From a candidate division WOR-3 bacterium (GTDB lineage Bacteria > Hydrothermota > Hydrothermia > Hydrothermales > Hydrothermaceae), in NCBI GenBank assembly GCA_039803745.1, contig JBDRZD010000047.1, forward strand, positions 1 through 13,624: a stretch of DNA of 13,624 bases. The letters are read 5' to 3'. The position numbers and the translations under genes were made by a program. Below, one piece after another: positions 20 through 13,617 of the stretch. Below the pieces are notes generated by a model that saw only the letters and a list, made by a program, of their open reading frames with translations, made no database searches and had not been told where the DNA came from. Each line of letters starts with the position of its first letter. The stretch's first letter is position 1.

Positions 20-1171
20 TTAAGGTTTACCTTCAAGCATTAAAAATTTTTTATCTTCAAGTTCTTTTATCTCTGGAATTTTCTCCCCTGCTATTGCCTT
101 TATTGAACCATAAAATCTCATAAGATTATCAAGAATTTTCTGCAAATCTTTTTCCCTTTCTGCCCATATACTTTGCATTCTCTTCCTTTCCTCAATATAA
201 CCTTTATAAAGTTTTGTAAATCCATCTATAAAAGCACCAAACTGATTTTTAAATTCATTACCTGTTAGGTAATCATAAAGCATTGCCATTTTTGTTTCTT
301 TATCTTCTCTTGAAATTTTTAAATAACTCATTTCTATAAGAAAATATCTCAAAATAAAGGAAAGCGGTTTTAATTCAAAAAAATTACAAATCCACACACC
401 ATCTTTATAAAAAAATCTATCACTTTCCTTTGGCATGGTTTCTGTCACAATGACTAAAAAATCTGCATTTAAATTGAGATTATCCTCTTTTAATTTTGCT
501 ATCCATTTGTTATCAAAATTTTTTGTCCTCTTGCTTTCATAATAAATTTTTCCACATTTAACTCCCTTTTCATTCTTTACAATTTGAATAACATCTGCTC
601 CAAATTCACCTTTACGAACTCTTTTAATTTCATCAAAAGGATATTCAATTTTTAAGAATTTTTCAATCTCTATTTCCTGAATTTCTCCTTTTAATCCTAT
701 TGATACTTTTTCTGCTTTTTCTTGTGCTTCTTTAAGTTCTTTCTTTAAATCTTCAATAGTCTTTTCTTTTTCCTTTAACTCAAAATAAAATTTTTCTTCT
801 AATTCTTTCTTTAATTTTTCCCTTTCTTCTGAAATTCTTTGAGAAAATTCCTTTTCCTTTTCAAAAATTATTCTTTCCTTTAATTCTTCTTTTTCCCTTT
901 TTATTTTTTCATATTCTGCTTGAAGTTTATAATAATCCTTTATTTTTTCTGTTTTTTCCATAATTTCTTTTTTAAGCTCCTTTATGTATTCAGCCATTTC
1001 ATTTTCTATTTTTTCTCGCGCTTCCTTTTCAATTTTTTCTTTTTCAATCTCTATTTTCTTTTTAAATTCATCATCGTATTTTATTTTGATTTCTCTCTCA
1101 ATCTGCTCGTAAAGAACTTCATTCACATCAATCTTCGTTCCACATTTTGGACATACAATTATATTTTTCAT
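20..1171 (-). CDS. DUF2130-family protein: N-terminal CxxC knuckle, long coiled coil, C-terminal PD-(D/E)xK-like domain
   Basis: 383-aa ORF. Starts IVCPKCG, has a ~130-aa E/K-rich heptad region, then KGEIQE..IE..L...YPFD.I..V.KG..GAD, IYYESKRTKNF...WI.KLKED and LVIVTETMP, a pattern I recognise as DUF2130. AGGGGG SD lies upstream of the ATG. Confidence 0.82.
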   Translation of the reverse strand: MKNIIVCPKCGTKIDVNEVLYEQIEREIKIKYDDEFKKKIEIEKEKIEKEAREKIENEMAEYIKELKKEIMEKTEKIKDYYKLQAEYEKIKREKEELKERIIFEKEKEFSQRISEEREKLKKELEEKFYFELKEKEKTIEDLKKELKEAQEKAEKVSIGLKGEIQEIEIEKFLKIEYPFDEIKRVRKGEFGADVIQIVKNEKGVKCGKIYYESKRTKNFDNKWIAKLKEDNLNLNADFLVIVTETMPKESDRFFYKDGVWICNFFELKPLSFILRYFLIEMSYLKISREDKETKMAMLYDYLTGNEFKNQFGAFIDGFTKLYKGYIEERKRMQSIWAEREKDLQKILDNLMRFYGSIKAIAGEKIPEIKELEDKKFLMLEGKP

Positions 1172-1204
1172 TTTGCCCCCTATCTAACATTTATTTTTAA
1201 AATT

Positions 1205-1789
1205 TTATTTTTTAACTAACTTGAATGCAAATTGGAAAATTAACCCTGCTAAAAATATTTTTAACAAATCACCAATTATGAATGGATAAAAACCTGCTTT
1301 TAAGGCATTTTCAAATCCGATAAACTTTGAAAGCCATAAAATACCGGGAATATATATAGTTATATTTCCAATAAGCATTGCAAAAATTGAAGTAATTAGA
1401 TTTTTGTCAAAACCTCTTTCAAAAAGAAAACCTACTGTATAAGAGCAAAAGATAAAACCGATTAAATAACCAAATGTTGGAGAAAATAAATAAAAAATTC
1501 CGCCTCCCCTTGAAAACCACGGAATTAAAGTTAAACCAAATATTAAATAAACAATTTGGGAGAATGTGCCTCTTTTTGAGCCAAGCAACGCACCCGAAAG
1601 CAAAACAATAAAAGTCTGCATTGTAACAGGAACAATACCGATTTCAATTTTTAATTGAGCAAATATACCTGTCAGAAATGAAAAAGAAAAAATTAAAAGG
1701 ATATCTTTTAAAATGGATAAAACCCTGCTCTGGATTTCCGGAATTACTAAATCAATCAAGGAGAGGCTTTTAAATTTTTTCTGGTTCAT
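1205..1789 (-). CDS. bioY: Biotin transporter BioY (ECF S-component)
   Basis: Hydrophobic 194-aa protein with BioY motifs VPVTMQTF, GALLGSKRG, Y...G...IPWFSRG and SPTFGYLIGF, plus C-terminal PFIIGDLLK. SD AAGGGAGG. 4-nt ATGA overlap with the upstream gene. Confidence 0.93.
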   Translation of the reverse strand: MNQKKFKSLSLIDLVIPEIQSRVLSILKDILLIFSFSFLTGIFAQLKIEIGIVPVTMQTFIVLLSGALLGSKRGTFSQIVYLIFGLTLIPWFSRGGGIFYLFSPTFGYLIGFIFCSYTVGFLFERGFDKNLITSIFAMLIGNITIYIPGILWLSKFIGFENALKAGFYPFIIGDLLKIFLAGLIFQFAFKLVKK

Positions 1790-2952
1790 TTTCCTCCCTT
1801 ATCAAATAAAATTTTTGTCTTTATATTTTCTCCATCACTATCAACGATAACTTTTCCTTTTTTATTTTTCCCGAATATATTAAAGGCAATTCTTTCAAGT
1901 TCTTTTAAAAGAGCACTCTCAATTCCTCTTGCGCCAACCCCTTTTTCAAGTGCCTTATCAACAATAAAATCTTTTGCCCTTTCTTTTAATACAAGTTCAA
2001 AACCTTCAAGTAAAAATTCTGTTTTTAATTTTTCTATTTTTAACTCAAGTATTTCTTTCAAAGTTTTTCTATCAAGGGGCTCAAAAGGGATTATTCTTTG
2101 AAATCTTGCAATGAGTTCCGGTAAAAAACCATATTTAAAGAAATTGGAAACATCTTCTTCTTCGCCTTTTAATCTATAAGCAATTACATTACCTTCTTCA
2201 TCAAACTCTTTTAAAAATCCAACATCCTTTGGAGAGAATTCTTTTGTAAATCCACTGAAGGCACCAAGCGCAACAAATAAAATTTCCTGAGTATTTATTC
2301 TGCCTTCAACATTATGGTCCTCTCCATACTCAAAAATCCCGTGCTCTAAGAGTTTGAGCAATTCCCTTTGAACTCCGTATCCAGAAACATCCTTCTGTGT
2401 CCCCGCACCTGCAAATCTTAAATTACTTGTAGAGCCTGCTATTTTATCAAACTCATCAATTATTATTGCTCCAATCTGGGCTAAATATTTGTTTCCCTTT
2501 GCTGCCTGAATCAATTTATAAGGAATATTTATAACATTTTCGCCAACATATCCTGTTTCACTGTATTTTGTTATATCAATTATCACATAAGGAATTTTTA
2601 AAATTCTTCCAAAAAGAAGTTCCATTATATATGTTTTTCCACAACCTGTTGGACCTATAAAAATATAATTAACTCTCTCAGGTAAATTTTCTGGAGGCAC
2701 TCTATATTCATAAATCATCTTTATTCTTCTTAAATGTCTGTAAACTGCCACACAAACCATCTTTCTCGCTTCTTCTTGACCCCTATACCCTTCTTTTTCT
2801 AATAAATTGTAGAGTTCTTCAGGAGAATACAAAGGGAGATTTTTTATAAATTTCTCAAATTCCTCTTTTTTCATGCTATCAATCGCACTTATCTTTTTAT
2901 AAATAAACATAAATTCATCCCTTTCATCATATTTAAAATTTTTATCTTTCAT
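1786..2952 (-). CDS. ClpX-like AAA+ unfoldase lacking the N-terminal C4 zinc-binding domain
   Basis: GQEEARKMVCVAVYRH (ClpX GQE.AK..LAVAVYNH), Walker A GPTGCGKT, pore-1 GYVG, Walker B IIIDEFDKI, KDVSGYGVQRELLKLLE, GAFSG, VGF (IGF-like loop), YGFLPELIARF and sensor-II GARG. No Cys4 ZBD and no RKH loop. SD AAGGAG. Confidence 0.85.
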   Translation of the reverse strand: MKDKNFKYDERDEFMFIYKKISAIDSMKKEEFEKFIKNLPLYSPEELYNLLEKEGYRGQEEARKMVCVAVYRHLRRIKMIYEYRVPPENLPERVNYIFIGPTGCGKTYIMELLFGRILKIPYVIIDITKYSETGYVGENVINIPYKLIQAAKGNKYLAQIGAIIIDEFDKIAGSTSNLRFAGAGTQKDVSGYGVQRELLKLLEHGIFEYGEDHNVEGRINTQEILFVALGAFSGFTKEFSPKDVGFLKEFDEEGNVIAYRLKGEEEDVSNFFKYGFLPELIARFQRIIPFEPLDRKTLKEILELKIEKLKTEFLLEGFELVLKERAKDFIVDKALEKGVGARGIESALLKELERIAFNIFGKNKKGKVIVDSDGENIKTKILFDKGGK

Positions 2953-3490
2953 TTTTCTCCTTTATAATTTGTGATAAAACTTTTTCATGTATTTTAAAAT
3001 CTTCCTCTGTATATAAAACAAATCTTATTCTTTTTACATATTTTAATTCTGGTATCATTTCAATTATTGTTTTAAATGCAACTTTTGCTGCTTCTTCAAC
3101 TGGATAACCAAAATAGCCTGTTGAGATTGCGGGAAAAGCAATTGAATCTATTTTATACTCTTCTGCAATCTTTAATGAATTTTTATAACAATCTGAAAGA
3201 ATCTTATCTTCTGGTTTATCCTTTCCATATACAGGTCCTAATGTATGAATCACATATTTGTTGGGCAAATTATATCCTTTTGTTATAACTGCCTCTCCAG
3301 GCTTTATTGGTGCATATTTTTTACACTCCTCTTCTAAAAGTGGACCTGCTGCTTTATGAATTGCACCTGCAACTCCACCACCCGGCTTTAGCCATGCATT
3401 CGCTGCATTTACAATTGCAGTAAATTCATTCTGTTCTACTATATTTCCTTTTACACATTCAAGTATAACATTGCCTATTTTTATTTGCAT
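2942..3490 (-). CDS. Macrodomain protein (MacroD/YmdB-like O-acetyl-ADP-ribose deacetylase / ADP-ribosylhydrolase)
   Basis: IVNAAN, GGGVAGAIH, GEAVIT.GYNL..KYVIHTLGP and SIAFPAISTGYFGYP. Start reassigned from 3553 to ATG 3490 (MQIKIG...) because the fold begins there and a promoter sits immediately upstream. Confidence 0.92.
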   Translation of the reverse strand: MQIKIGNVILECVKGNIVEQNEFTAIVNAANAWLKPGGGVAGAIHKAAGPLLEEECKKYAPIKPGEAVITKGYNLPNKYVIHTLGPVYGKDKPEDKILSDCYKNSLKIAEEYKIDSIAFPAISTGYFGYPVEEAAKVAFKTIIEMIPELKYVKRIRFVLYTEEDFKIHEKVLSQIIKEKNER

Positions 3491-3496
3491 AAATGA

Positions 3497-3526
3497 ATTA
3501 TAATAAAAAATAACTTTTTCTTTCAA
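3497..3526 (-). promoter_or_regulatory. Sigma70-type promoter for the macrodomain-clpX-like-bioY-DUF2130 unit (probably leaderless)
   Basis: Minus strand TTGAAA (3526-3521), 18 nt, TATAAT (3502-3497), 6 nt, ATG (3490). No SD. Confidence 0.7.
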
Positions 3527-3534
3527 ATCTGGTC

Positions 3535-4860
3535 TCATAATTCTACTTCCCATACTTTCTTTGCAATATTTATGAATGAATTCCTTATTATTTTAAACTT
3601 TTGCCTTTTTCTTAAAATTATTATATAAACTTCAATTCCTTTTTCAACAATTTTATCTCTGTTAATTTTTGATATATTTGCATAGCCATCTGTTATAACA
3701 AGTATTTTTTTAAAATCATTTTGAATTGCATGTTTTGCAATTGAATCAAAATCTGTCCCATAGGTTGTCTTTATTTTTCCTTCTTTTAAATCTCTTAATG
3801 TAATCTCATATACTTTATTTGAAAATATATAAATTGGCTCTAAAATAACATCTTTTAAAAAATAACATATTTCGTAAACAAAGGACCAGTATTCTTTTGT
3901 GGAACCTGAAACATCTATGTAAATTTTTGGTCTTTTGTAAAAAGGCACTCTCTGAATTAAAATTCTGGAAAAAAAGAAAGGATAAATGCCTCTACAAATA
4001 AAAAGTGTTTCTCTTCTTGAAGGAAAGGGAATAACACTTCTTGATTTATTCATTTCATAAACAAGGTAAAATTTATCATCTTTTGTAATTGCCTCTTTTA
4101 TTGCTTCTTTAAAAATATGAATTGTTTCATTCTTAATATTTTTTCCATCTATTATTTTGACCTTTTCAAATTTTTCTTCCTCATTTTTACCTCCTTTATG
4201 GGATTTTCTCAAATAATCCTTCAAAAAATCAGGTATTTTTGATTCTATCTTTTTTATTTCATCAATGAATCTTATTTTATATAAATTTTCAAAATTTTTC
4301 AAATATTTTTTTATGAAATTTATGAAATTATGGATATCTTCATTCTCCTTATAAAGAAAATTTTTTATGTAATAGGCAACTTGGCGGTATTTAAAAACTT
4401 TTTTCTTTTTAAGGAAAAAATTTAAATTGTTTATTATTTTTCCATCTTTTATAACCTTATAGGGATTTAAAAATACTCTAATTGAAAATGGTAAATTTTT
4501 ATAAAACTTTTTGAGAAATTCTGGCTCTTTTAAGAAAAGTTTTTTTGCTATAAAGTAATTAACGATTGAATCAAATATAAAATTCATAAAAATTTTCCCA
4601 TTCTTTTCTTTTTCAATGTAATATTTTCCAACATAAAATTGAGATAAAAGGGCATGAAGATATTCATGAAGCAAAACAAAATAAAGGTCGTCTTTTTTCT
4701 TTAAATATCTTTCTTTAAACTTCTTTCCAATTTTTATAGAGTAAAAACCATTTGAATTGGAAATTAAAGCAGTTTTGACCTTCTCATCCTCTGTTATCTC
4801 AACCTGAGAAAAAATTAATCTCAAAATTTTTAAACCGAGCCCTGTTAAATTTTCTCTCAT
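3535..4860 (-). CDS. HExxH zincin-like metallopeptidase + C-terminal vWA domain protein (DUF2201-like MoxR partner)
   Basis: LLHEYLH (H65/E66/H69) followed by NFIFDSIVN, similar to the N.A.D..IN motif of DUF2201-type peptidase domains. Complete MIDAS: IYIDVSGST, GTDF, LVITDGY. 4-nt overlap with the upstream ORF. Confidence 0.78.
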   Translation of the reverse strand: MRENLTGLGLKILRLIFSQVEITEDEKVKTALISNSNGFYSIKIGKKFKERYLKKKDDLYFVLLHEYLHALLSQFYVGKYYIEKEKNGKIFMNFIFDSIVNYFIAKKLFLKEPEFLKKFYKNLPFSIRVFLNPYKVIKDGKIINNLNFFLKKKKVFKYRQVAYYIKNFLYKENEDIHNFINFIKKYLKNFENLYKIRFIDEIKKIESKIPDFLKDYLRKSHKGGKNEEEKFEKVKIIDGKNIKNETIHIFKEAIKEAITKDDKFYLVYEMNKSRSVIPFPSRRETLFICRGIYPFFFSRILIQRVPFYKRPKIYIDVSGSTKEYWSFVYEICYFLKDVILEPIYIFSNKVYEITLRDLKEGKIKTTYGTDFDSIAKHAIQNDFKKILVITDGYANISKINRDKIVEKGIEVYIIILRKRQKFKIIRNSFINIAKKVWEVEL

Positions 4861-5954
4861 AATCCTGCAATCATTAAAAATTCTGTATTTTGTTTAACAG
4901 ATGGGTGAAAATAAACAAGTGGAAAATTTTCCAAACTTTTCTCTTTTTTTAATAAGTAATTAAAAGCATAGATTATCCTCTCATCATCTATAACCTTTAT
5001 TTTTTTGAAGTTTATTGGCACTCTTGAATCAAAGGCAAAAATAACTTTTGAATTAAAGGGATTTTTAATTGTTTTATGATTTATTTTATTTTTTATCTCT
5101 TTTTTGAAAGGAATAAAGCATTCAAAATTTAAGAAATTGTATCCAACGAGATATTCAAAATCTGATTTTCTGTTTATCTTCCCATCTTTATCAAACCTCT
5201 TTATAATTTCAGGAGATAGATTTCTTAAAATTCTGAAACGATTGGCATCGTAATGAATAACACTTAAATTCCTCTTATAATGAAAGGGATTATCCCTTTT
5301 TAGTATCCTTTTTATTTTTCTTCCTCTTCTCCACATAAAAGAAGGAATATAAGGAATATCCAGTCTCTCTGGGGGAATATATGGAAAAAGTAAAAATTCC
5401 ACTCTTGGAATTTTATAATTTTTAAACTTGATAAATTTCTCCCTGTAAATTAGGAAAATATTTTCCCTGTCCAAGGAATAAGTAAAGATAAGATTCCCTT
5501 TATAATTTATAAAGGGATATTTTCCTTCTATGGAAAAATATTCTTCTTCTGGAAAGTATTTTATAAAGTTTAATGTTTTTTTCTTAACAGCAATTTCTAT
5601 TCCTTTTTCCTTTGAACCAATATTTTTTATCAAGTTATCTATTTCTTTATTTCCGTCTACATAGTGTTCACATAAAAAAGAAACTACCTTGGGTAAAGAA
5701 GAGGTAAATATAACACCTTTTATTTCTTTTATTTCACCATTTATTTTTATGCGAAATTTTCCTATATAAGAGTGAATATCTTCACAGGAAAATAAGGAAT
5801 CAAAGGGTAAATTTTCCCGATAATAAAAAATGACTTCTTCCACATTACACATTCCATAATTTACCACATCTTTTAACGGAACTTCCAGTTCACAAATTTC
5901 ATAGAGTTTAACATCCTTTTTATCTAACAATTTTGAAAGACCAGTTATTTTCAT
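4857..5954 (-). CDS. Hypothetical protein (365 aa), middle gene of the MoxR-vWA cassette
   Basis: Long uninterrupted ORF with 4-nt ATGA overlaps to both neighbours. No motif recognised. The N-terminal part is more acidic and Cys-containing; the C-terminal half is basic and aromatic-rich. Confidence 0.75.
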   Translation of the reverse strand: MKITGLSKLLDKKDVKLYEICELEVPLKDVVNYGMCNVEEVIFYYRENLPFDSLFSCEDIHSYIGKFRIKINGEIKEIKGVIFTSSLPKVVSFLCEHYVDGNKEIDNLIKNIGSKEKGIEIAVKKKTLNFIKYFPEEEYFSIEGKYPFINYKGNLIFTYSLDRENIFLIYREKFIKFKNYKIPRVEFLLFPYIPPERLDIPYIPSFMWRRGRKIKRILKRDNPFHYKRNLSVIHYDANRFRILRNLSPEIIKRFDKDGKINRKSDFEYLVGYNFLNFECFIPFKKEIKNKINHKTIKNPFNSKVIFAFDSRVPINFKKIKVIDDERIIYAFNYLLKKEKSLENFPLVYFHPSVKQNTEFLMIAGL

Positions 5955-7285
5955 TTTTCCCTCCCATTCATTTTTTCAATCAAATCTTTATATTCATAAA
6001 AAATCTCTTTAATATCTTCGCTCTCATTATAAAAATCTCTTGAATGGATACCTTCATAAATCAAAAATTTTAAAGCAAGGGAGTCGGATTTTTTATTCAA
6101 ATCCGGTGGAAAAGGAGAATCAAAAAGTTCAAAGATTGCTAAAGGTGAGGCTTCTTCAAAGAATCTTTCTGCAAATATTCTCAGACATTTTGAAAGGAAA
6201 CTTTTTGAAACTTTTTCATTGCCTGTAAATACTTTTTTAAGAAAAGAATAAAGGGAAACATTTTTCTTTATCTTTTTATCAATTTCAACCTCCTGTGAAT
6301 ATTCATCACATAATTTTGAAAGAATCTTTTCATAATCAATCTCTTTTTCTGTTTCTTTTTCTTTAAAAGAATCAAAAATTTTTGTTATTTCATTATGAAT
6401 TAAAGAAAAATTTTCATTTTCAAATTTTTGACCTGTTACTTTGAAAGGAAGGGAAAGAAGAAAGGTCTTATAAAATATACTGAATAAATTATCCTTTTTA
6501 AATATACCTTTTGCCATTTTTACTGATATTACAGAAATTATATTTCTTCTAATCATTCCTGCTCTTCTTCCATCTATTTCAATTTCCTCTTTTTTTAATT
6601 CTTCAATTAAACTGTAAATATAATTTGTAATAACATTGTTATATTCCTGAATAACTTTTTGAAAATTTAACTTTGCCTTACCAATAAAAGTTCTTAAGTC
6701 AAAAGATCTTTTATTTTTCTTCTTTTCTATCATAGGAGCGTCCTCCTCTGAAATAGCCCTTATCACCTTTTTTACATTTTTTTCATTCATTGATATTAAC
6801 GGAGGAATTTCTATGAATAAAGAGAACCTCCCTGCAAGCGCTTTATCAAGATAATTTGTTCCAAGATAATTTTTTGGTGGATTCATTGCACCAAATATAT
6901 ATTTTAGATTGGTTAATTTTTTACCCATTAATTTTCTCTCTCTTATTATTTCAAGCCATTTATTCTGCATTGTGGGTTCTGCTCTTGAGATTTCATCTAT
7001 TAATATAAATTCTTTATCCCATATAGAGATATCTGTGATTGCATATTCCACTCTTCCTTCTTTAAAACTATCAGGATTTGGAAAACCAATAATATCCTCA
7101 AAAAGGGCTTTTGATGCATCATAAGAATGAAATTTAAGTTTTAATGCTTCTGCAAGCCTTCTTGAAAGCAAAGTCTTGGCACTCCCTATTTCTCCAATTA
7201 AAAGGATAGGGTCACCTGTTACAAGGCTTGCAAGGATAAAATCCTCTACCTCATCCATTCCATATATACCTAACTTTTCCAGCAT
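5951..7285 (-). CDS. MoxR/RavA-type AAA+ ATPase with C-terminal extension
   Basis: ILLIGEIGSAKT (RavA-like GxxGxAKT Walker A), EDIIGFPNP, Walker B ILIDEISRA, MQNKWLEIIRER, sensor-I GAMNP, Arg finger LDKALAGRF and DGRRA sensor-II. Strong SD AAGGAGGTG at 7298-7290. Confidence 0.88.
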   Translation of the reverse strand: MLEKLGIYGMDEVEDFILASLVTGDPILLIGEIGSAKTLLSRRLAEALKLKFHSYDASKALFEDIIGFPNPDSFKEGRVEYAITDISIWDKEFILIDEISRAEPTMQNKWLEIIRERKLMGKKLTNLKYIFGAMNPPKNYLGTNYLDKALAGRFSLFIEIPPLISMNEKNVKKVIRAISEEDAPMIEKKKNKRSFDLRTFIGKAKLNFQKVIQEYNNVITNYIYSLIEELKKEEIEIDGRRAGMIRRNIISVISVKMAKGIFKKDNLFSIFYKTFLLSLPFKVTGQKFENENFSLIHNEITKIFDSFKEKETEKEIDYEKILSKLCDEYSQEVEIDKKIKKNVSLYSFLKKVFTGNEKVSKSFLSKCLRIFAERFFEEASPLAIFELFDSPFPPDLNKKSDSLALKFLIYEGIHSRDFYNESEDIKEIFYEYKDLIEKMNGREK

Positions 7286-7311
7286 ATTACACCTCCTTTT
7301 TAATCAGTTAA

Positions 7312-7343
7312 ATATTAATTTTTAAAAATGACAATTTTTGACA
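7312..7343 (-). promoter_or_regulatory. Candidate regulated promoter/operator of the MoxR cassette: TGTCA-N5-TGTCA direct repeat followed 11 nt later by TAATAT
   Basis: Minus strand TGTCA(7343-7339)AAAAT TGTCA(7333-7329) TTTTTAAAAAT TAATAT(7317-7312), then about 20 nt of leader containing the SD. There is no good -35 at 17 nt from this -10. Confidence 0.45.
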
Positions 7344-7344
7344 C

Positions 7345-7374
7345 TTGATTATTCTAAAAAAATTTTTGTATAAT
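7345..7374 (+). promoter_or_regulatory. Sigma70-type promoter of cas6
   Basis: TTGATT (7345-7350), 18 nt, TATAAT (7369-7374). ATG follows 11 nt later with no SD. Confidence 0.55.
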
Positions 7375-7385
7375 TAAAATATAAA

Positions 7386-8123
7386 ATGAGACTTAAAATC
7401 TTAATGGGTGAAGAAGAAAAATGGTATAAGTTTCCATGGGGATATCCATATCATGTTTCTTCTTTAATTTATAACCTTTTACATAAAGTTGAACCTGAAT
7501 TAAGTTTTCTACTTCACACTTTTGGATTTCAAAAAGGAAACAAAAAGTTTAAAATTTTCAATTTTTCCCCGTTATTACCTAAAAAATTTATAGGAAGGGA
7601 AGACTTCTGTTATCTTCTTGCCCCATTCACTCTTTATTTTTCAACACCAATTGAGGAAATAATTGAAAAAATAGTTAAAGCAATAAAAAAGGAAGGAAAA
7701 GTAACCCTTCTTGGATATATTTTACCAATTATAAAAATTAAGGAAATCCCGGTTTCTATTGATAAAGAGGTTATAACATTAAGGACACTTTCTCCTTTAA
7801 CGATTTCAAGGAAAATAAAAATAAAAGATAAGATAACTTCTCTCTATTTAACTCCTGAAAATGAAGATTTTATTCCAAGAATTAAAGAAAATTTAATTGA
7901 AAAATTTTCAATATTTTACGATGTGCAAAAAGATGAAATTGAATTAGAAATTGAACCAATTTCTTATCATGTTAAACTTGTAGAAATTAAAAATATAAAG
8001 GTTAAAGGAGTGATGATGGAATTTAAGGTAAAGGCATCTTTAAAGGAAATTATAAAATTTGGATACGAGGCAGGTTTTGGAGAAAAAACTTCAATGGGTT
8101 TTGGTTTTGTTGAGGAGTGTTGA
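7386..8123 (+). CDS. cas6: CRISPR-associated endoribonuclease Cas6 (Pyrococcus-like Cas6; solo in this window)
   Basis: C-terminal G-rich loop GYEAGFGEKTSMGFGFV, plus SLIYN, LLH, FKIFNFS, LYFST, TLSPL and ENLIEKF. Y29/H44/K56 appear to match the P. furiosus Cas6 Tyr/His/Lys catalytic triad. Confidence 0.93.
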   Translation: MRLKILMGEEEKWYKFPWGYPYHVSSLIYNLLHKVEPELSFLLHTFGFQKGNKKFKIFNFSPLLPKKFIGREDFCYLLAPFTLYFSTPIEEIIEKIVKAIKKEGKVTLLGYILPIIKIKEIPVSIDKEVITLRTLSPLTISRKIKIKDKITSLYLTPENEDFIPRIKENLIEKFSIFYDVQKDEIELEIEPISYHVKLVEIKNIKVKGVMMEFKVKASLKEIIKFGYEAGFGEKTSMGFGFVEEC

Positions 8124-8149
8124 AAAATTGGTTTTAAAAATAATATAAT
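8120..8149 (+). promoter_or_regulatory. Sigma70-type promoter of hsp20-lon-dapA (near-leaderless)
   Basis: TTGAAA (8120-8125, overlapping the cas6 stop), 18 nt, TATAAT (8144-8149), 9 nt, ATG 8159. No SD. Confidence 0.6.
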
Positions 8150-8158
8150 AAAATTATT

Positions 8159-8560
8159 ATGAAAGATTTTTTATTTGATGAAATTTTTGAGGAAATGAGA
8201 AGCACTTTAAAAGAATTTTTTTCCTATAGAGATGTGGAAACTGTAAGACCTCCTGCAAATATAAAAGAAACAAAAAATAAATTCATAATAGAAATTCTTT
8301 TGCCCGGTGTTAAAAAAGAAGATATAAGAATAAAAATAGAAGAGGATAATGTGCTTACAGTTGAAGGGGAAGCACATTTAGAAGAGGAAGAAATCGTTTG
8401 TTATCACAGGCTTGAATGGTCTTTAAAGAAGTTTAGAATAAGATTTGAACTTGGTCCTATGGTTGAATTTTCCCAAATTGCATCAATTTTAAAGGATGGA
8501 ATTTTAAAAATAATAATTCCTAAAAAAGAAAAAAAGGAAATTGAACTTATTATTGAATAA
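8159..8560 (+). CDS. Small heat-shock protein, Hsp20/alpha-crystallin family
   Basis: PPANIKET...FIIEILLPGVKKEDIRI, LTVEGE, HRLE...KKFRIRFEL, IASILKDGILKIIIPK and a C-terminal IxI-like motif (IELIIE). Confidence 0.93.
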   Translation: MKDFLFDEIFEEMRSTLKEFFSYRDVETVRPPANIKETKNKFIIEILLPGVKKEDIRIKIEEDNVLTVEGEAHLEEEEIVCYHRLEWSLKKFRIRFELGPMVEFSQIASILKDGILKIIIPKKEKKEIELIIE

Positions 8561-8562
8561 AT

Positions 8563-10950
8563 ATGGAAGGAATTAAAATACCAAAAACATTGAATATATT
8601 GCCTGTAAAAGGAGGGGTGATATTCCCGAATATGACAATCCCTCTTGTTATAAAGGAGAAGAATATACAGGAACTTATTGATGACGCCCTTAAGAAAGAG
8701 AAAATGGTTCTTACAATCACCCAGAGGGATGAAAGTATTGAAAATCCTAAATTTAAGGATTTGTATACAGTAGGTACTGTTTCTTTGATCCTGAAAATGA
8801 TGAGGGTTCCTGATGGGACAATGAGACTCATAATCCAAGGAATTAAAAGAGCAAGAATTAAAAAAGAATTAAAAGAAGAACCCTTTCTTGTTGCAGAAAT
8901 TGAAGAACTTGAAGATATAATTAAAACTAAAAATGAAAAAGAAATTGAAGCATTAAAGACAAATGTTTTAAATCTTTTAAAAGAAATAGTTCAAAATATT
9001 CCTTATATTCCTGAGGATTTCCTTCTTATAGCCCTTAATATACCCGAAGCAGGTAAACTTGCTGATTTTGTTGCTGGTTATATGCAATTCCCTGTTGAAG
9101 AAAAACAGAAAGTTTTGGAAACACAGGATGTTATTGAAAGACTCCGAAGTGTATTAAGACTATTGGCACAGGAAAAAGAATTGATATCTCTTTCTCAAAA
9201 AATAAGAGAGGAAATAAGTGAAAAGATTGATAAAGAGCAAAGGGAATATTATTTAAGACAGCAATTAAAGGCAATACAGAAAGAACTTGGAGAAATTGAT
9301 GAAAAAACAAAAGAAGTTGAAGAATTGAGGAGAAAAATAGAAGAGGCAAAAATGCCAAAAGAGGTTCATGAAATTGCATTGAAAGAACTTTCTAAACTTG
9401 AAAGAATACCACCCGGTATGCCGGAGTATACAGTAGTAAGAAATTATCTTGATTGGCTTATTGAACTTCCCTGGTCAATAGAAACAGAAGATAATCTTGA
9501 TTTAAAAAGAGCAAGAAAAATACTTGATGAGGACCATTTTAATCTTGAAAGGGTAAAGGAAAGAATATTAGAATTTCTTGCAGTTAGAATTTTGAAAAAG
9601 GGGGAAATAAAAGGACCTATACTCTGTTTTGTTGGTCCACCCGGTGTTGGTAAAACTTCCTTGGGTAAATCAATTGCAAGAGCACTTGGAAGAAAATTTA
9701 TAAGGATGTCATTGGGAGGAATAAGGGATGAAGCAGAGATAAGAGGACACAGAAGAACATATGTTGGAGCACTTCCCGGAAGAATAATTCAGGGAATAAG
9801 GCAGGCAAAAAGTAAAAATCCTGTATTTATGCTTGATGAAATAGATAAGATTGGAATTGATTTTAGAGGGGATCCATCCTCTGCCCTTTTAGAAGTTCTT
9901 GACCCTGAACAAAATTATTCATTTTCAGACCACTACCTTGAAGTTCCTTTTGACTTATCAAAAGTATTTTTTATTGCGACTGCAAATACCACATATACAA
10001 TACCACCTCCACTTTTAGATAGAATGGAAATCATAGAAATTCCCGGATATATAGAATACGAAAAAATAGAGATTGCAAAAAAATATTTAATACCAAGACA
10101 AATTGAAGCAAATGGACTTTTAGGTTATGAAATTATATTTGAAGAAGAAGCGATAAAGAAAATTATAAGGGAATATACAAGGGAAGCAGGATTAAGAAAT
10201 GTTGAAAGGAAAATCGGAACAATTTTAAGGAAAATTGCCGTTGAAATTGCTGAAGGTAAAAAAATTGATAAAGTTATAATAAAAGAGGAAGATATTGAAA
10301 AATATCTTGGGCCGAGAGTATTTTTCTCTGAAACAAAAGCAAGAGAAGGAATACCCGGTATTGCAACAGGTATGGCATGGACACCCACAGGAGGCGAAAT
10401 ACTTTTCATAGAATCAACAAAGATGCCCGGTGGAAGAAATTTAATTTTAACAGGACAATTAGGAGAGGTTATGAAAGAAAGTGCACAAGCCGCCCTTTCA
10501 ATAATAAGAAGTAAATCAGAACAACTTGGAATAGAAAAAGATTTCTGGAATAAATATGATATACATATTCATGTTCCGGAAGGCGCTGTTCCAAAGGATG
10601 GGCCTTCTGCAGGAATAACAATATTTATTTCCCTTGTTTCACTTTTGAAAAATCAGCCTGTTAATCCTGAAATAGCAATGACAGGGGAAATTACATTAAG
10701 GGGAAAGGTTATGCCTGTTGGTGGAATAAAAGAAAAGGTTTTAGCAGCAAAAAGAGCAGGAATTAAAGAAATAATTTTACCAAAATTGAACGAAAAAGAT
10801 TTGGTTGAGATACCTGATTATGTTAAAAAGGATTTAAAGTTCTATTTTGTTGAAAATGTTGATGATGTGTTAAAAATAGTTTTTAAAGATGAAAAAAAAT
10901 TGAAAAAGAGAGGGACAAAGAAAGGAAATAAAGGAGGAAAAAATGATTGA
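8563..10950 (+). CDS. lon: ATP-dependent Lon protease (LonA, peptidase S16)
   Basis: LON N-domain (ILPVKGGVIFP), QREYYLRQQLKAIQKELG, Walker A GPPGVGKT, RGHRRTYVGALPG, Walker B MLDEIDK, catalytic PKDGPSAG and GGIKEK. Confidence 0.98.
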   Translation: MEGIKIPKTLNILPVKGGVIFPNMTIPLVIKEKNIQELIDDALKKEKMVLTITQRDESIENPKFKDLYTVGTVSLILKMMRVPDGTMRLIIQGIKRARIKKELKEEPFLVAEIEELEDIIKTKNEKEIEALKTNVLNLLKEIVQNIPYIPEDFLLIALNIPEAGKLADFVAGYMQFPVEEKQKVLETQDVIERLRSVLRLLAQEKELISLSQKIREEISEKIDKEQREYYLRQQLKAIQKELGEIDEKTKEVEELRRKIEEAKMPKEVHEIALKELSKLERIPPGMPEYTVVRNYLDWLIELPWSIETEDNLDLKRARKILDEDHFNLERVKERILEFLAVRILKKGEIKGPILCFVGPPGVGKTSLGKSIARALGRKFIRMSLGGIRDEAEIRGHRRTYVGALPGRIIQGIRQAKSKNPVFMLDEIDKIGIDFRGDPSSALLEVLDPEQNYSFSDHYLEVPFDLSKVFFIATANTTYTIPPPLLDRMEIIEIPGYIEYEKIEIAKKYLIPRQIEANGLLGYEIIFEEEAIKKIIREYTREAGLRNVERKIGTILRKIAVEIAEGKKIDKVIIKEEDIEKYLGPRVFFSETKAREGIPGIATGMAWTPTGGEILFIESTKMPGGRNLILTGQLGEVMKESAQAALSIIRSKSEQLGIEKDFWNKYDIHIHVPEGAVPKDGPSAGITIFISLVSLLKNQPVNPEIAMTGEITLRGKVMPVGGIKEKVLAAKRAGIKEIILPKLNEKDLVEIPDYVKKDLKFYFVENVDDVLKIVFKDEKKLKKRGTKKGNKGGKND

Positions 10951-11890: not shown

Positions 11891-11926
11891 TTATAAACTC
11901 AAATTTAAATTTTGGAGGTGATAAAT

Positions 11927-12640
11927 ATGGAAGAGGCAATTAAAAAAATAATTGAAATGCTTGAAAAAGGGAAAATAACAGCAGAAGATGCGGAAAGGCT
12001 TATAAAGGCGGTAAAAGAGGCAGAAAAAAAAGAAAGAGAATACAGATTTTTTGATTTTGGATGGATATCAGAAATGGTAAAGGACGCGATTCATTCAGCC
12101 TTTATTTCTAAAAAGGGAGGTTTTGAAGAGGTAATTACAGAAATTCCATTAAAGGAAATAATAAAAGTTACATCTTATAGCGGGGATATAAAGATAAAAA
12201 CTCAAAAAAGAGATAATATAAAAATAGAGGCAGAAGGGGCAAATTTTAAGGAAGAAGAAAATGAAATAATAGTAAATTCTTATGGAGATACAGAAATTTT
12301 TATGCCTGAAGAAAACAATCTGATTATTATTTATAATTACAGTGGGGAGATTGAACTTGAAGGCAATTTTAAGAAATTAAAAATAAATACTTATTCAGGT
12401 GATATAAGTATTGATGGCGAATTTGATGAAATGGATTTGGATACATATAATGGAGATTGCAAAGTAGAAACAAAAAGAAAGCCAATAATGATAAATTTTA
12501 ATACTTATAGTGGTGAAATAGAATTGCCTGAAGGATTTAAAAAAGAGGGAAATGTTTATATTTATGGGGAAGGTGAATATAAAAGGATTGGTGTCAGAAA
12601 TTATAGTGGTGATTTTGAATTAAAATTTAAGGAGGAATAA
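11927..12640 (+). CDS. SHOCT-like N-terminus + DUF4097 (Toastrack-like beta-repeat) protein, LiaX/YvlB-like
   Basis: IKKIIEMLEKGKITAEDAERLIKAV, then about 7 repeats of (S/T/N)Y(S/N)G(D/E)h.h. Start moved from TTG 11912 to ATG 11927 because GGAGGTG is its SD. Confidence 0.78.
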   Translation: MEEAIKKIIEMLEKGKITAEDAERLIKAVKEAEKKEREYRFFDFGWISEMVKDAIHSAFISKKGGFEEVITEIPLKEIIKVTSYSGDIKIKTQKRDNIKIEAEGANFKEEENEIIVNSYGDTEIFMPEENNLIIIYNYSGEIELEGNFKKLKINTYSGDISIDGEFDEMDLDTYNGDCKVETKRKPIMINFNTYSGEIELPEGFKKEGNVYIYGEGEYKRIGVRNYSGDFELKFKEE

Positions 12641-12993
12641 TGAAAGAAGAAATTAAAAAAATACTGAAAATGGTGGAAGAGGGTAAATTAAAAAGTGAAG
12701 AGGCTGAAAGACTTATTGAAGCAATCCTTGATACAGAGAAAAAAACTTATTCAGGTAAATTCTTAAAAATAAAGATTGAAGATAAAGAGGAAGGAGACAA
12801 GGTAAATATAAATATTCCGATGGCGCTTGTAAAAATGGCCACAAAATTTATACCAAAGGATAAAAAAGAGTATTTAAAAGAAAAAGATATAAATATTGAT
12901 GAAATACTCTCCTCAATTAAAGAAGCAACAGAAGGTGAAATTATGAATATTGAAGATGAAAATGGCTCTTACATTAAAATATGGATTGAGTGA
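12640..12993 (+). CDS. SHOCT-like domain protein of DUF2089-associated operons
   Basis: EEIKKILKMVEEGKLKSEEAERLIEAI, then KFLKIKI...KVNINIPMALVK and a C-terminal IKIWIE. 1-nt TAATG overlap with the upstream gene. Confidence 0.75.
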   Translation: MKEEIKKILKMVEEGKLKSEEAERLIEAILDTEKKTYSGKFLKIKIEDKEEGDKVNINIPMALVKMATKFIPKDKKEYLKEKDINIDEILSSIKEATEGEIMNIEDENGSYIKIWIE

Positions 12994-12994
12994 T

Positions 12995-13258
12995 ATGAAA
13001 ACAGGGATATTTTTAATCGTTTTAGGGCTTTTTATATGGTTTTTGAATCTTGGAGTTTTCTCTTTCTGGAAATGGGAAAGGGACTGGCCATGGATTCTTG
13101 TGATAATTGGCATTTTCTCCATTATTGGATATTTTAAAAAGAAATTTAGAAAAAGCAGAAAATTCAAAAAAGAAAAAATTAAGGATATACTTGATAAAAT
13201 TGAAAAAGGCGAAATAAACATAGAAGAAGCAATAAAAAGAATTAAAAAAGAAGAATGA
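12995..13258 (+). CDS. Small membrane protein: LiaI/LiaF-like two-TM hairpin + C-terminal SHOCT-like motif
   Basis: GIFLIVLGLFIWFLNLG...WPWILVIIGIFSII (LiaF/DUF5668-like), followed by IKDILDKIEKGEINIEEAIKRIK. ATG 12995 is preferred over 12950 because it follows the upstream stop by 1 nt. Confidence 0.7.
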   Translation: MKTGIFLIVLGLFIWFLNLGVFSFWKWERDWPWILVIIGIFSIIGYFKKKFRKSRKFKKEKIKDILDKIEKGEINIEEAIKRIKKEE

Positions 13259-13617
13259 AAGGGATAATTGGGAAATGTCCTTTATGTTCTGAAAAATTAA
13301 AAATAAAGGTTCTTGAATGTCCTGCCTGTAAAATAAAAATAGAAGGTGAATTTGATATTCCTTCTTTGTTTTTATTATCTGAAGAAGAACTCAATTTTTT
13401 ATTTTTATTTTTAAAAACAAGAGGAAATCTCTCAGAAATTTCAAAAATTCTTGGTCTTTCCTATCCTACTACAAGACAGAGATTTGAAGAATTTTTAAAA
13501 AAGATAGGCATTGAACCTTCTCATTCAAAAAATGAAATAATGGAAATACTTGAACTCCTTGAAAAAGGAGAGATAACTGCTAAGGAGGCTGAAAAGAGAA
13601 TAAAAGAGATTAAATAA
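13255..13617 (+). CDS. DUF2089-family protein (Zn ribbon + HTH + SHOCT-like), putative regulator
   Basis: CPLC...LECPACKIKIEGEF, LSEEELNFL..FLKTRGNLSEISKILGLSYPTTRQR, and C-terminal EILELLEKGEITAKEAEKRI. Confidence 0.88.
   Translation: MKGIIGKCPLCSEKLKIKVLECPACKIKIEGEFDIPSLFLLSEEELNFLFLFLKTRGNLSEISKILGLSYPTTRQRFEEFLKKIGIEPSHSKNEIMEILELLEKGEITAKEAEKRIKEIK

Follow-up and report, generated by a model that had tools for sequence, protein, structure and literature searches.

A stand-alone cas6 gene among housekeeping genes of a Hydrothermales bacterium: a probable trans-acting crRNA maturase for type III CRISPR-Cas loci

The DNA analysed here (the window) is the entire contig C47, 13,624 bp, of a hot-spring Hydrothermales metagenome-assembled genome (MAG), and the cas6 gene that it carries is probably a crRNA maturase that acts in trans for type III loci elsewhere in the genome. 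We infer its activity, its substrate and the trans relationship, and this reading is supported by the finding that the assembly has type III-B cmr genes that are not accompanied by cas6, and only a single cas6 gene overall. A trans-acting maturase was one of two readings that an initial annotation of the window had offered, and it is the one that we prefer. The assembly (G000) consists of 100 contigs with a total of 1.67 Mb at 29.7% GC, with 93.5% completeness and 0.21% contamination. The features of the window to which the text refers are the following.

7386..8123, + strand: cas6 (245 aa), stand-alone CRISPR endoribonuclease gene with Tyr29/His44/Lys56 and a C-terminal G-loop
7345..7374, + strand: promoter-like site of cas6, TTGATT-18-TATAAT (10/12 in a consensus scan; putative function)
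8120..8149, + strand: promoter-like site of hsp20-lon, TTGAAA-18-TATAAT (11/12)
8159-8560, + strand: hsp20 (Pfam HSP20)
8563-10950, + strand: lon (Pfam Lon_C and LON_substr_bdg; TIGR00763)
5951-7285, - strand: MoxR-like AAA gene (Pfam AAA_5, bpMoxR)
3535..7285, - strand: MoxR cassette (MoxR-like AAA, 365-aa unknown protein, 441-aa ORF)

Results

The window encodes an intact Cas6

By family models, fold and residues, the ORF at 7386-8123 is a genuine, full-length and intact Cas6. It matched Pfam Cas_Cas6_C (PF01881; 3.6e-28, 99.3 bits against a cut-off of 23), the Cas6_I-A N-terminal domain (PF21350; 5.7e-13, 49.4 bits, cut-off 27) and NCBIfam TIGR01877 cas_cas6 (1.7e-37, 129.8 bits, cut-off 58.65), and PADLOC called it Cas6b (2.8e-52). 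The Cas6 fold is made of two RRM/ferredoxin-like domains. When the AlphaFold2 model of the window protein (mean pLDDT 88.0, pTM 0.81) was compared with the PDB by Foldseek, the best nine matches were all Cas6 or Cas6-related chains (TM 0.78-0.86), the topmost being Cas6 at TM 0.81-0.84, and a phmmer comparison with solved Cas6 structures gave 1.1e-30 to 5yi6 and 4.2e-16 to 3pkm. Y29, H44 and K56 align with Tyr, His and Lys of Pyrococcus furiosus Cas6 (3pkm_A), the catalytic triad of which is given as Tyr31/His46/Lys52 in PMC3652601, and they likewise match the residues of Methanocaldococcus jannaschii Cas6-1 (5yi6) in the alignment. The G-loop GFGEKTSMGFGFV, residues 230-242, aligns with the loops of 5yi6 and 3pkm. 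The three residues are unchanged across eight aligned orthologues, in which G230, G232, E233 to G240 and V242 of the G-loop are also invariant. The dN/dS values of 0.093 and 0.128, against the orthologues of G002 and G010:C56, respectively, indicate that selection on the gene is purifying. The window gene had been described at first as a full-length Cas6 with a G-loop and an equivalent of the Tyr29/His44/Lys56 triad, and this description was borne out by the Pfam and NCBIfam matches above their cut-offs and by the alignments to solved Cas6 chains.

With regard to characterized proteins, the window Cas6 has its family and fold (Foldseek TM 0.81-0.86) in common with P. furiosus Cas6 (PDB 3i4h, 3pkm) and M. 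jannaschii Cas6-1 (5yi6), as well as the positions of the Tyr/His/Lys triad and the G-loop, though the identity is 25-33% and the window protein is bacterial (Hydrothermales). Cas6 of this kind acts as a free enzyme and not as an effector subunit (PMC5965381), as the window Cas6 would too. On the other hand, the non-catalytic paralogues P. horikoshii PH0350 (3qjj/3qjp) and the P. furiosus Cas6-related protein 3ufc resemble the window Cas6 in fold and G-loop but have neither Tyr nor His at the aligned positions of Y29 and H44. The window Cas6 retains both residues and therefore groups with the catalytic forms.

The gene stands among housekeeping genes

The seven upstream ORFs on the - strand encode a MoxR-like AAA protein, the 365-aa and 441-aa proteins of the cassette, a Macro protein, a ClpX-like AAA protein, BioY and a DUF2130 protein, while hsp20, lon, dapA, a DUF4097 gene and genes for three small SHOCT/LiaF/DUF2089 proteins follow cas6 on the + strand. 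No cas family was matched by any of the 14 flanking ORFs, seven per side (Pfam on all, PADLOC on eight of them), and no repeat-spacer structure was present within the window; Pfam, PADLOC and the repeat scan of the window thus agree with what had been noted by eye. In PADLOC, the ClpX-like gene, the DUF2130 gene and lon gave weak or partial matches to other families, none of them a cas family, and the MoxR cassette, the Macro gene and hsp20 gave no match. Rfam also gave no match in the window, in contig C93 or in bases 1-2510 of contig C94 (locus L080). This setting differs from that of the P. furiosus and M. jannaschii genes: the window cas6 lies amid housekeeping genes, with no adjoining array or cas genes. 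It is separated by 100 bp (7286-7385) from the divergent MoxR-like gene and by 35 bp (8124-8158) from hsp20, and no terminator-like site was found on the + strand in the latter gap. The coordinates and the scan are in accordance with the arrangement first reported, that is, divergence from the MoxR-like gene and a position 35 bp upstream of hsp20 without a visible terminator.

Some of the neighbours deserve mention in their own right. The 441-aa ORF of the MoxR cassette has HExxH and DxSGS (vWA-like) motifs, as read from its translation, and the MoxR-like AAA protein matched Pfam bpMoxR (2.6e-09), the name of which refers to MoxR-vWA ternary systems; by this match, the cassette may be a conflict system rather than a part of proteostasis. 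A paralogous MoxR cassette in another genome of the order (G001:C64, L077) adjoins genes for WYL-type proteins, as judged by eye. ClpX models match the ClpX-like AAA protein (1786-3553, - strand, including Macro; L076 2-1643, - strand) only from about model residue 50, so that it may be without the N-terminal zinc-binding domain. Its gene overlaps the Macro-domain gene, and the pair is kept in G001. At 11912-13617 (+ strand), the DUF4097 'toastrack' gene, genes for two small SHOCT-like/LiaF-like proteins and a gene for a DUF2089 zinc-ribbon HTH protein form a cluster that is also kept in G004 and looks like an envelope-stress module.

Type III-B genes without cas6 are present in the same assembly

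The window cas6 is the only cas6 in the assembly, and cmr genes were found on two other contigs, both of which are cut at both ends. C93 (3,191 bp), found by a RAMP search, carries cmr3(part)-CARF/RelE-cmr4-cmr5(part), and C94 (3,148 bp), found by a Cmr2 search, carries cmr2(part)-cmr3-CARF(part); neither of them carries cas6. Cmr2 on C94 scored 173.6 bits, above the cut-off, Cmr3, Cmr4 and Cmr5 were also above their cut-offs, and the Cmr2, Cmr3, Cmr4, Cmr5 and CARF genes on these contigs have no internal stops. The two contigs overlap by 1,281 nt at 85.6% identity, which indicates that a single type III-B locus is represented by two diverged copies, from strains or as paralogues. The initial statement that there is no array and no other cas gene is thus right for the window but not for the genome, which has the cmr genes. 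Likewise, the search of the whole genome for type I/III loci that it had recommended did yield cmr genes without cas6 on C93 and C94, with no array assembled. As a side observation, a CARF-RelE fusion gene (PADLOC CARF7-CARF_RelE, 6.4e-123) lies between cmr3 and cmr4 on C93 (L006 1304-2488, - strand) and is also found, in part, on C94, and G009:C30 shows the same order with a CARF gene between cmr3 and cmr4.

C93 and C94 are 3-kb metagenome contigs that are assigned to this genome by binning only. C93 is syntenic with G009:C30 at 73-75% nucleotide identity, and 84-95% identity was found between a part of it and a contig from the other family (G007), so that the C93 cassette may be mobile or mis-binned. 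C93 was covered in all 30 bins in each of four hot-spring runs (4/4) from four studies, as 189, 149, 44 and 45 variant pieces; these runs were selected for containing the window and provide contigs with no RNA information. The pieces that cover C93 are small and have many variant letters. A polymorphic locus of this kind breaks short-read assembly, which makes missing parts of the locus and missing arrays unsurprising but does not prove that they exist.

As for the remaining components, Cas1 (two models), Cas2 and Cas5d gave no match in the assembly, the Cas3 core model gave three matches that were all below the cut-off, and Cmr1 and Cmr6 were not found, with a single RAMP match in the genome. 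A search of all 100 contigs for k-mers recurring at 45-110 or 40-120 bp spacing gave nothing array-like, and a fuzzy search of the assembly with four repeat sequences of relatives and their shared core gave chance-level matches only. Over the 11 genomes of the order, the repeat core detected arrays only in genus g3 of family f2. A three-repeat pattern (GTTTNAA x3), which detects only repeats ending in TTNAAAC, gave 53 matches in the G009 control and 0-2, the control level, in the genomes of the window's family (f1). No scan found an array in the assembly, and hence none gave a substrate repeat, which counts against the maturase reading. One array candidate on C87 was rejected, the contig being a 63% GC contaminant. 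Contigs C69, C87 and C98 of the assembly, with 58-68% GC in a 30% GC bin, are likely contaminants, and C87 has a large ORF, transposase-like by eye, plus a masked stretch.

The stand-alone cas6 is a resident gene of the order

The collection has 11 species genomes of the order Hydrothermales, which were searched with a profile of the stand-alone Cas6 clade. The clade was found in 9/11 genomes; the profile did not find it in G001 (93% complete) or G003 (67% complete). A Cas6 tree was made of 21 sequences, namely the loci of the Cas6 search plus L066, L069, L079 and L088, with G002, G012 and G023 (stops) and weaker matches without loci left out. All nine stand-alone copies group together in a single clade (support 98/97), which is split by family, and the Cas6 proteins encoded beside cas1/cas2 in G007:C40 and G008:C58 are placed elsewhere in the tree. 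We conclude that the stand-alone cas6 has long resided in the chromosome of Hydrothermales and has been inherited vertically. Another cas family is present in eight of the nine genomes that have it, as follows.

G000 (the window's assembly): Cmr genes on C93 and C94
G002: Cmr4, Cmr1, Cmr5, Cas4-Cas1b
G005: a RAMP fragment and one repeat, both at contig ends
G006: one RAMP, three Cmr2 fragments, Cas5 with a stop
G007: RAMPs, Cas1, arrays
G008: Cas1, Cas2, Cas5, a second cas6
G009: two Cmr loci, arrays
G010: RAMPs, one array

The arrangement is clearest in G009, where cmr2-cmr3-CARF-cmr4-cmr5-cmr6 on C30 has no cas6 and the second Cmr locus, also without cas6, has at its end an array whose repeat is GTTGCAATGTGCCAAAGAGGAATTTAAAC. 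The arrays of this genome have 62 repeat cores, and the orthologue of the window gene is the one Cas6 match in it. Two other genomes deviate from this pattern. G004 (Ca. Hydrothermus pacificus JdFR-72; 95% complete, 20 contigs), a family-level relative, has an intact orthologue with 66% identity, and there the Cas1, Cas2, RAMP, Cmr2 and Cas5d models gave no match and neither the repeat core nor the three-repeat pattern detected an array. In G001, a type III-D-like locus encodes Cas10, three Csx7-like proteins and a protein that weakly matches Csx10, and no cas6 was found beside this locus or elsewhere in the genome. Thus, cas6 occurs without other cas genes in G004 and type III without cas6 in G001, and the pairing of cas6 with type III is not strict. 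In G002, cas6 is interrupted at codon 120 by a nonsense mutation (GAA to TAA), and there are 40 nucleotide differences in total, 27 of them silent. The stop reflects either recent inactivation of the gene or an error in the assembly.

Two further observations concern the cas loci of the relatives. In G002:C155 (L059), at 1148-2831 (- strand), Cmr1 is fused to an MntA-like nucleotidyltransferase and is followed by a HI0074/HepT-like gene, inside the Cmr operon. In G006, solitary exact copies of the 18-nt repeat core occur outside arrays (G006:C1 near 413672, L095; G006:C3:11825), one of which lies near the Cas5 gene with a stop, and they may be remnants of decayed arrays.

These genomes also bear on the idea that the window cas6 is a leftover, the CRISPR-Cas partner of which has been lost or is decaying while the gene persists before its own loss. 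The lack of any array, Cas1, Cas2, Cmr1 or Cmr6 in the window's assembly is what this idea would predict, as are the absence of cas6 in G001, the nonsense codon in G002 and the presence of cas6 alone in G004. However, the window ORF is intact with its key residues kept and a dN/dS of about 0.1, and the Cmr2-Cmr5 and CARF genes on C93/C94 are free of internal stops and recur in four independent runs. Moreover, missing parts are to be expected of a bin of 100 contigs that is 93.5% complete. We therefore regard a leftover cas6 as quite unlikely, and prefer the trans-acting maturase.

The link to hsp20-lon is confined to one family

The initial annotation had proposed that cas6 is tied to stress regulation, and had pointed to conservation of cas6-hsp20-lon in relatives as informative. 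In G004, the order cas6-hsp20-lon-dapA-DUF4097 and onward is kept and the cas6 stop overlaps the hsp20 start by 4 nt, and G002 and G010:C56 likewise retain the junction of cas6 with hsp20. G010:C56, 4.2 kb long, was assigned to an f2 bin with 8% contamination and thus probably comes from a co-binned f1 organism, and the adjacency of cas6 and hsp20-lon is found only within f1. In G001, which is of the same genus as the window, hsp20-lon on C80 (L076) faces the ClpX-like and Macro genes head-to-head, with cas6 and the MoxR cassette missing. In all six f2 genomes, on the other hand, the cas6 orthologue immediately follows tRNA-Arg(TCT) and is itself followed by cheW-cheY-cheA-cheC and two TPR genes. 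Conservation of the junction therefore holds for G002, G010:C56 and G004 but fails in G001 and in f2. Conserved adjacency as expected of an hsp20-lon operon with cas6 as one functional unit was seen in f1 only, and neither in G001 nor in the six f2 genomes. Since the f2 neighbours differ and G001 keeps hsp20-lon without cas6, cas6 can be lost without disturbing hsp20-lon. From these gene orders, the position of cas6 beside hsp20-lon appears to be synteny rather than a regulatory or functional tie, and we treat hsp20 and lon (8159..10950) only as neighbours, outside the function of Cas6.

As observations on the two arrangements, the MoxR cassette (3535-7285, - strand) and cas6 together represent a joint insertion or deletion relative to G001. 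In f2, the tRNA-Arg(TCT) genes are at L030 10336-10411 (- strand), L033 9513-9588 (+ strand) and L034 10375-10450 (- strand), and cas6 starts a few bases after them; mechanical ORF calling extends the cas6 N-terminus into the tRNA-Arg. The f2 cas6 may be transcribed together with tRNA-Arg(TCT).

With regard to transcription in the window, the -10 hexamer of the cas6 promoter-like site ends 11 nt ahead of the ATG, and TTGATT-N17/18-TATAAT is found close before the ATG in all four f1 orthologues (window, G002, G010:C56 and G004). The promoter of its own that had been ascribed to cas6 is thus represented by a promoter-like site that is kept in f1, though such matches in this AT-rich stretch are not above the level of shuffled sequences (9 found against 7.3 +/- 3.3). 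The 35-bp gap between cas6 and hsp20 is occupied by the promoter-like site of hsp20, the first hexamer of which overlaps the cas6 stop codon. In G001, hsp20 is preceded by the same architecture, TTGAAA-N18-TATAAT-N9-ATG. The presence of this site in a genome without cas6 suggests that hsp20-lon needs no cas6 promoter.

These data also speak to a stress-coupled maturase, that is, a cas6 co-transcribed with hsp20-lon so that crRNA maturation would rise with heat or proteotoxic stress. The same strand, the 35-bp gap with no terminator-like site and the adjacency kept in G002, G010:C56 and G004 (with the 4-nt overlap) are compatible with such coupling. However, the gap is filled by the near-consensus promoter-like site of hsp20, which is also present in G001, and the downstream operon in f2 is quite different. 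The restriction of the adjacency to f1, the order cas6-cheW-cheY-cheA in f2 and hsp20-lon without cas6 in G001 do not support the proposed tie to stress regulation, and we consider coupling of this kind highly improbable.

Discussion

We propose that the stand-alone Cas6 would mature pre-crRNA in trans for the Cmr genes (type III-B) of C93 and C94. If it works like P. furiosus Cas6, its substrate would be a repeat with little structure, and cleavage would give a crRNA that carries a repeat-derived handle at its 5' end. The crRNA would then be passed to the Cmr complex, of which Cas6 would not be a stable subunit. The gene stands at the start of a housekeeping operon, which is a different one in each family. 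According to the 2025 CRISPR-Cas classification (PMC12669027), the majority of type III systems apparently rely on Cas6 provided in trans. The Cmr loci without cas6 in the window's assembly and in G009, with a single cas6 elsewhere in the genome, are likewise of this type. On the other hand, the trans Cas6 described in that classification comes from other CRISPR-cas loci, whereas the donor gene here is outside any cas locus and, unlike those donors, is a fixed chromosomal gene that is vertically inherited across an order. In the literature on orphan or stand-alone cas6 we found no cas6 embedded among housekeeping genes, which does not by itself show that the idea is unpublished.

The second reading of the initial annotation was an exapted or moonlighting Cas6 with a non-CRISPR RNA substrate, for example its own transcript (cas6-hsp20-lon in one family and tRNA-Arg-cas6-cheWYA in the other). 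Exaptation would explain the retention of cas6 as a core chromosomal gene. It is consistent with vertical inheritance and with a housekeeping position that is fixed in each family over family-level divergence, and with the invariant triad and G-loop and the low dN/dS. In G004, moreover, the copy is intact with its stop overlapping the hsp20 start, while five cas family models gave no match. A non-canonical regulatory role has been reported for a type III-associated Cas6 of Thermus thermophilus (PMC12102369), and this report also speaks for exaptation. However, G001 lacks cas6 but retains intact hsp20-lon with its promoter-like site, and the G002 gene has a nonsense codon at residue 120. In addition, the neighbours differ between the families, which leaves no shared target operon; there is no repeat-like site in the window; all carriers except G004 have other cas genes; and G004 is itself a MAG, in which CRISPR loci may be unbinned. 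Exaptation thus gained the intact G004 copy without other cas genes found, and was disfavoured by the loss in G001 and the nonsense codon in G002. A core, vertically inherited Cas6 whose gene invariably leads the protein genes of its housekeeping operon (hsp20-lon-dapA or tRNA-Arg-cas6-cheWYA) and is intact even in G004 could have a second, non-CRISPR role in RNA processing, but we regard this as unlikely. If it were true, the second role might be, for example, the cutting of its own polycistronic transcript.

Provision of Cas6 in trans to type III systems is known biology, and if the trans-acting maturase is the right reading, the window gene exemplifies a familiar arrangement and nothing out of the ordinary. 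When a fragmented metagenome bin has a 'solo' cas gene on one of its contigs, that gene should be assessed in the context of the entire assembly, in which polymorphic CRISPR-Cas loci and arrays are the parts that assemble worst. The new value of the present case is modest: the donor cas6 is outside the other cas loci and is a stable gene of the core genome, while the Cmr cassettes vary. Only the copy of G004, for which no partner was detected, points towards something new. If the maturase reading is true, the cas6 of Hydrothermales would neatly illustrate how one fixed maturase of the host can serve exchangeable effector modules.
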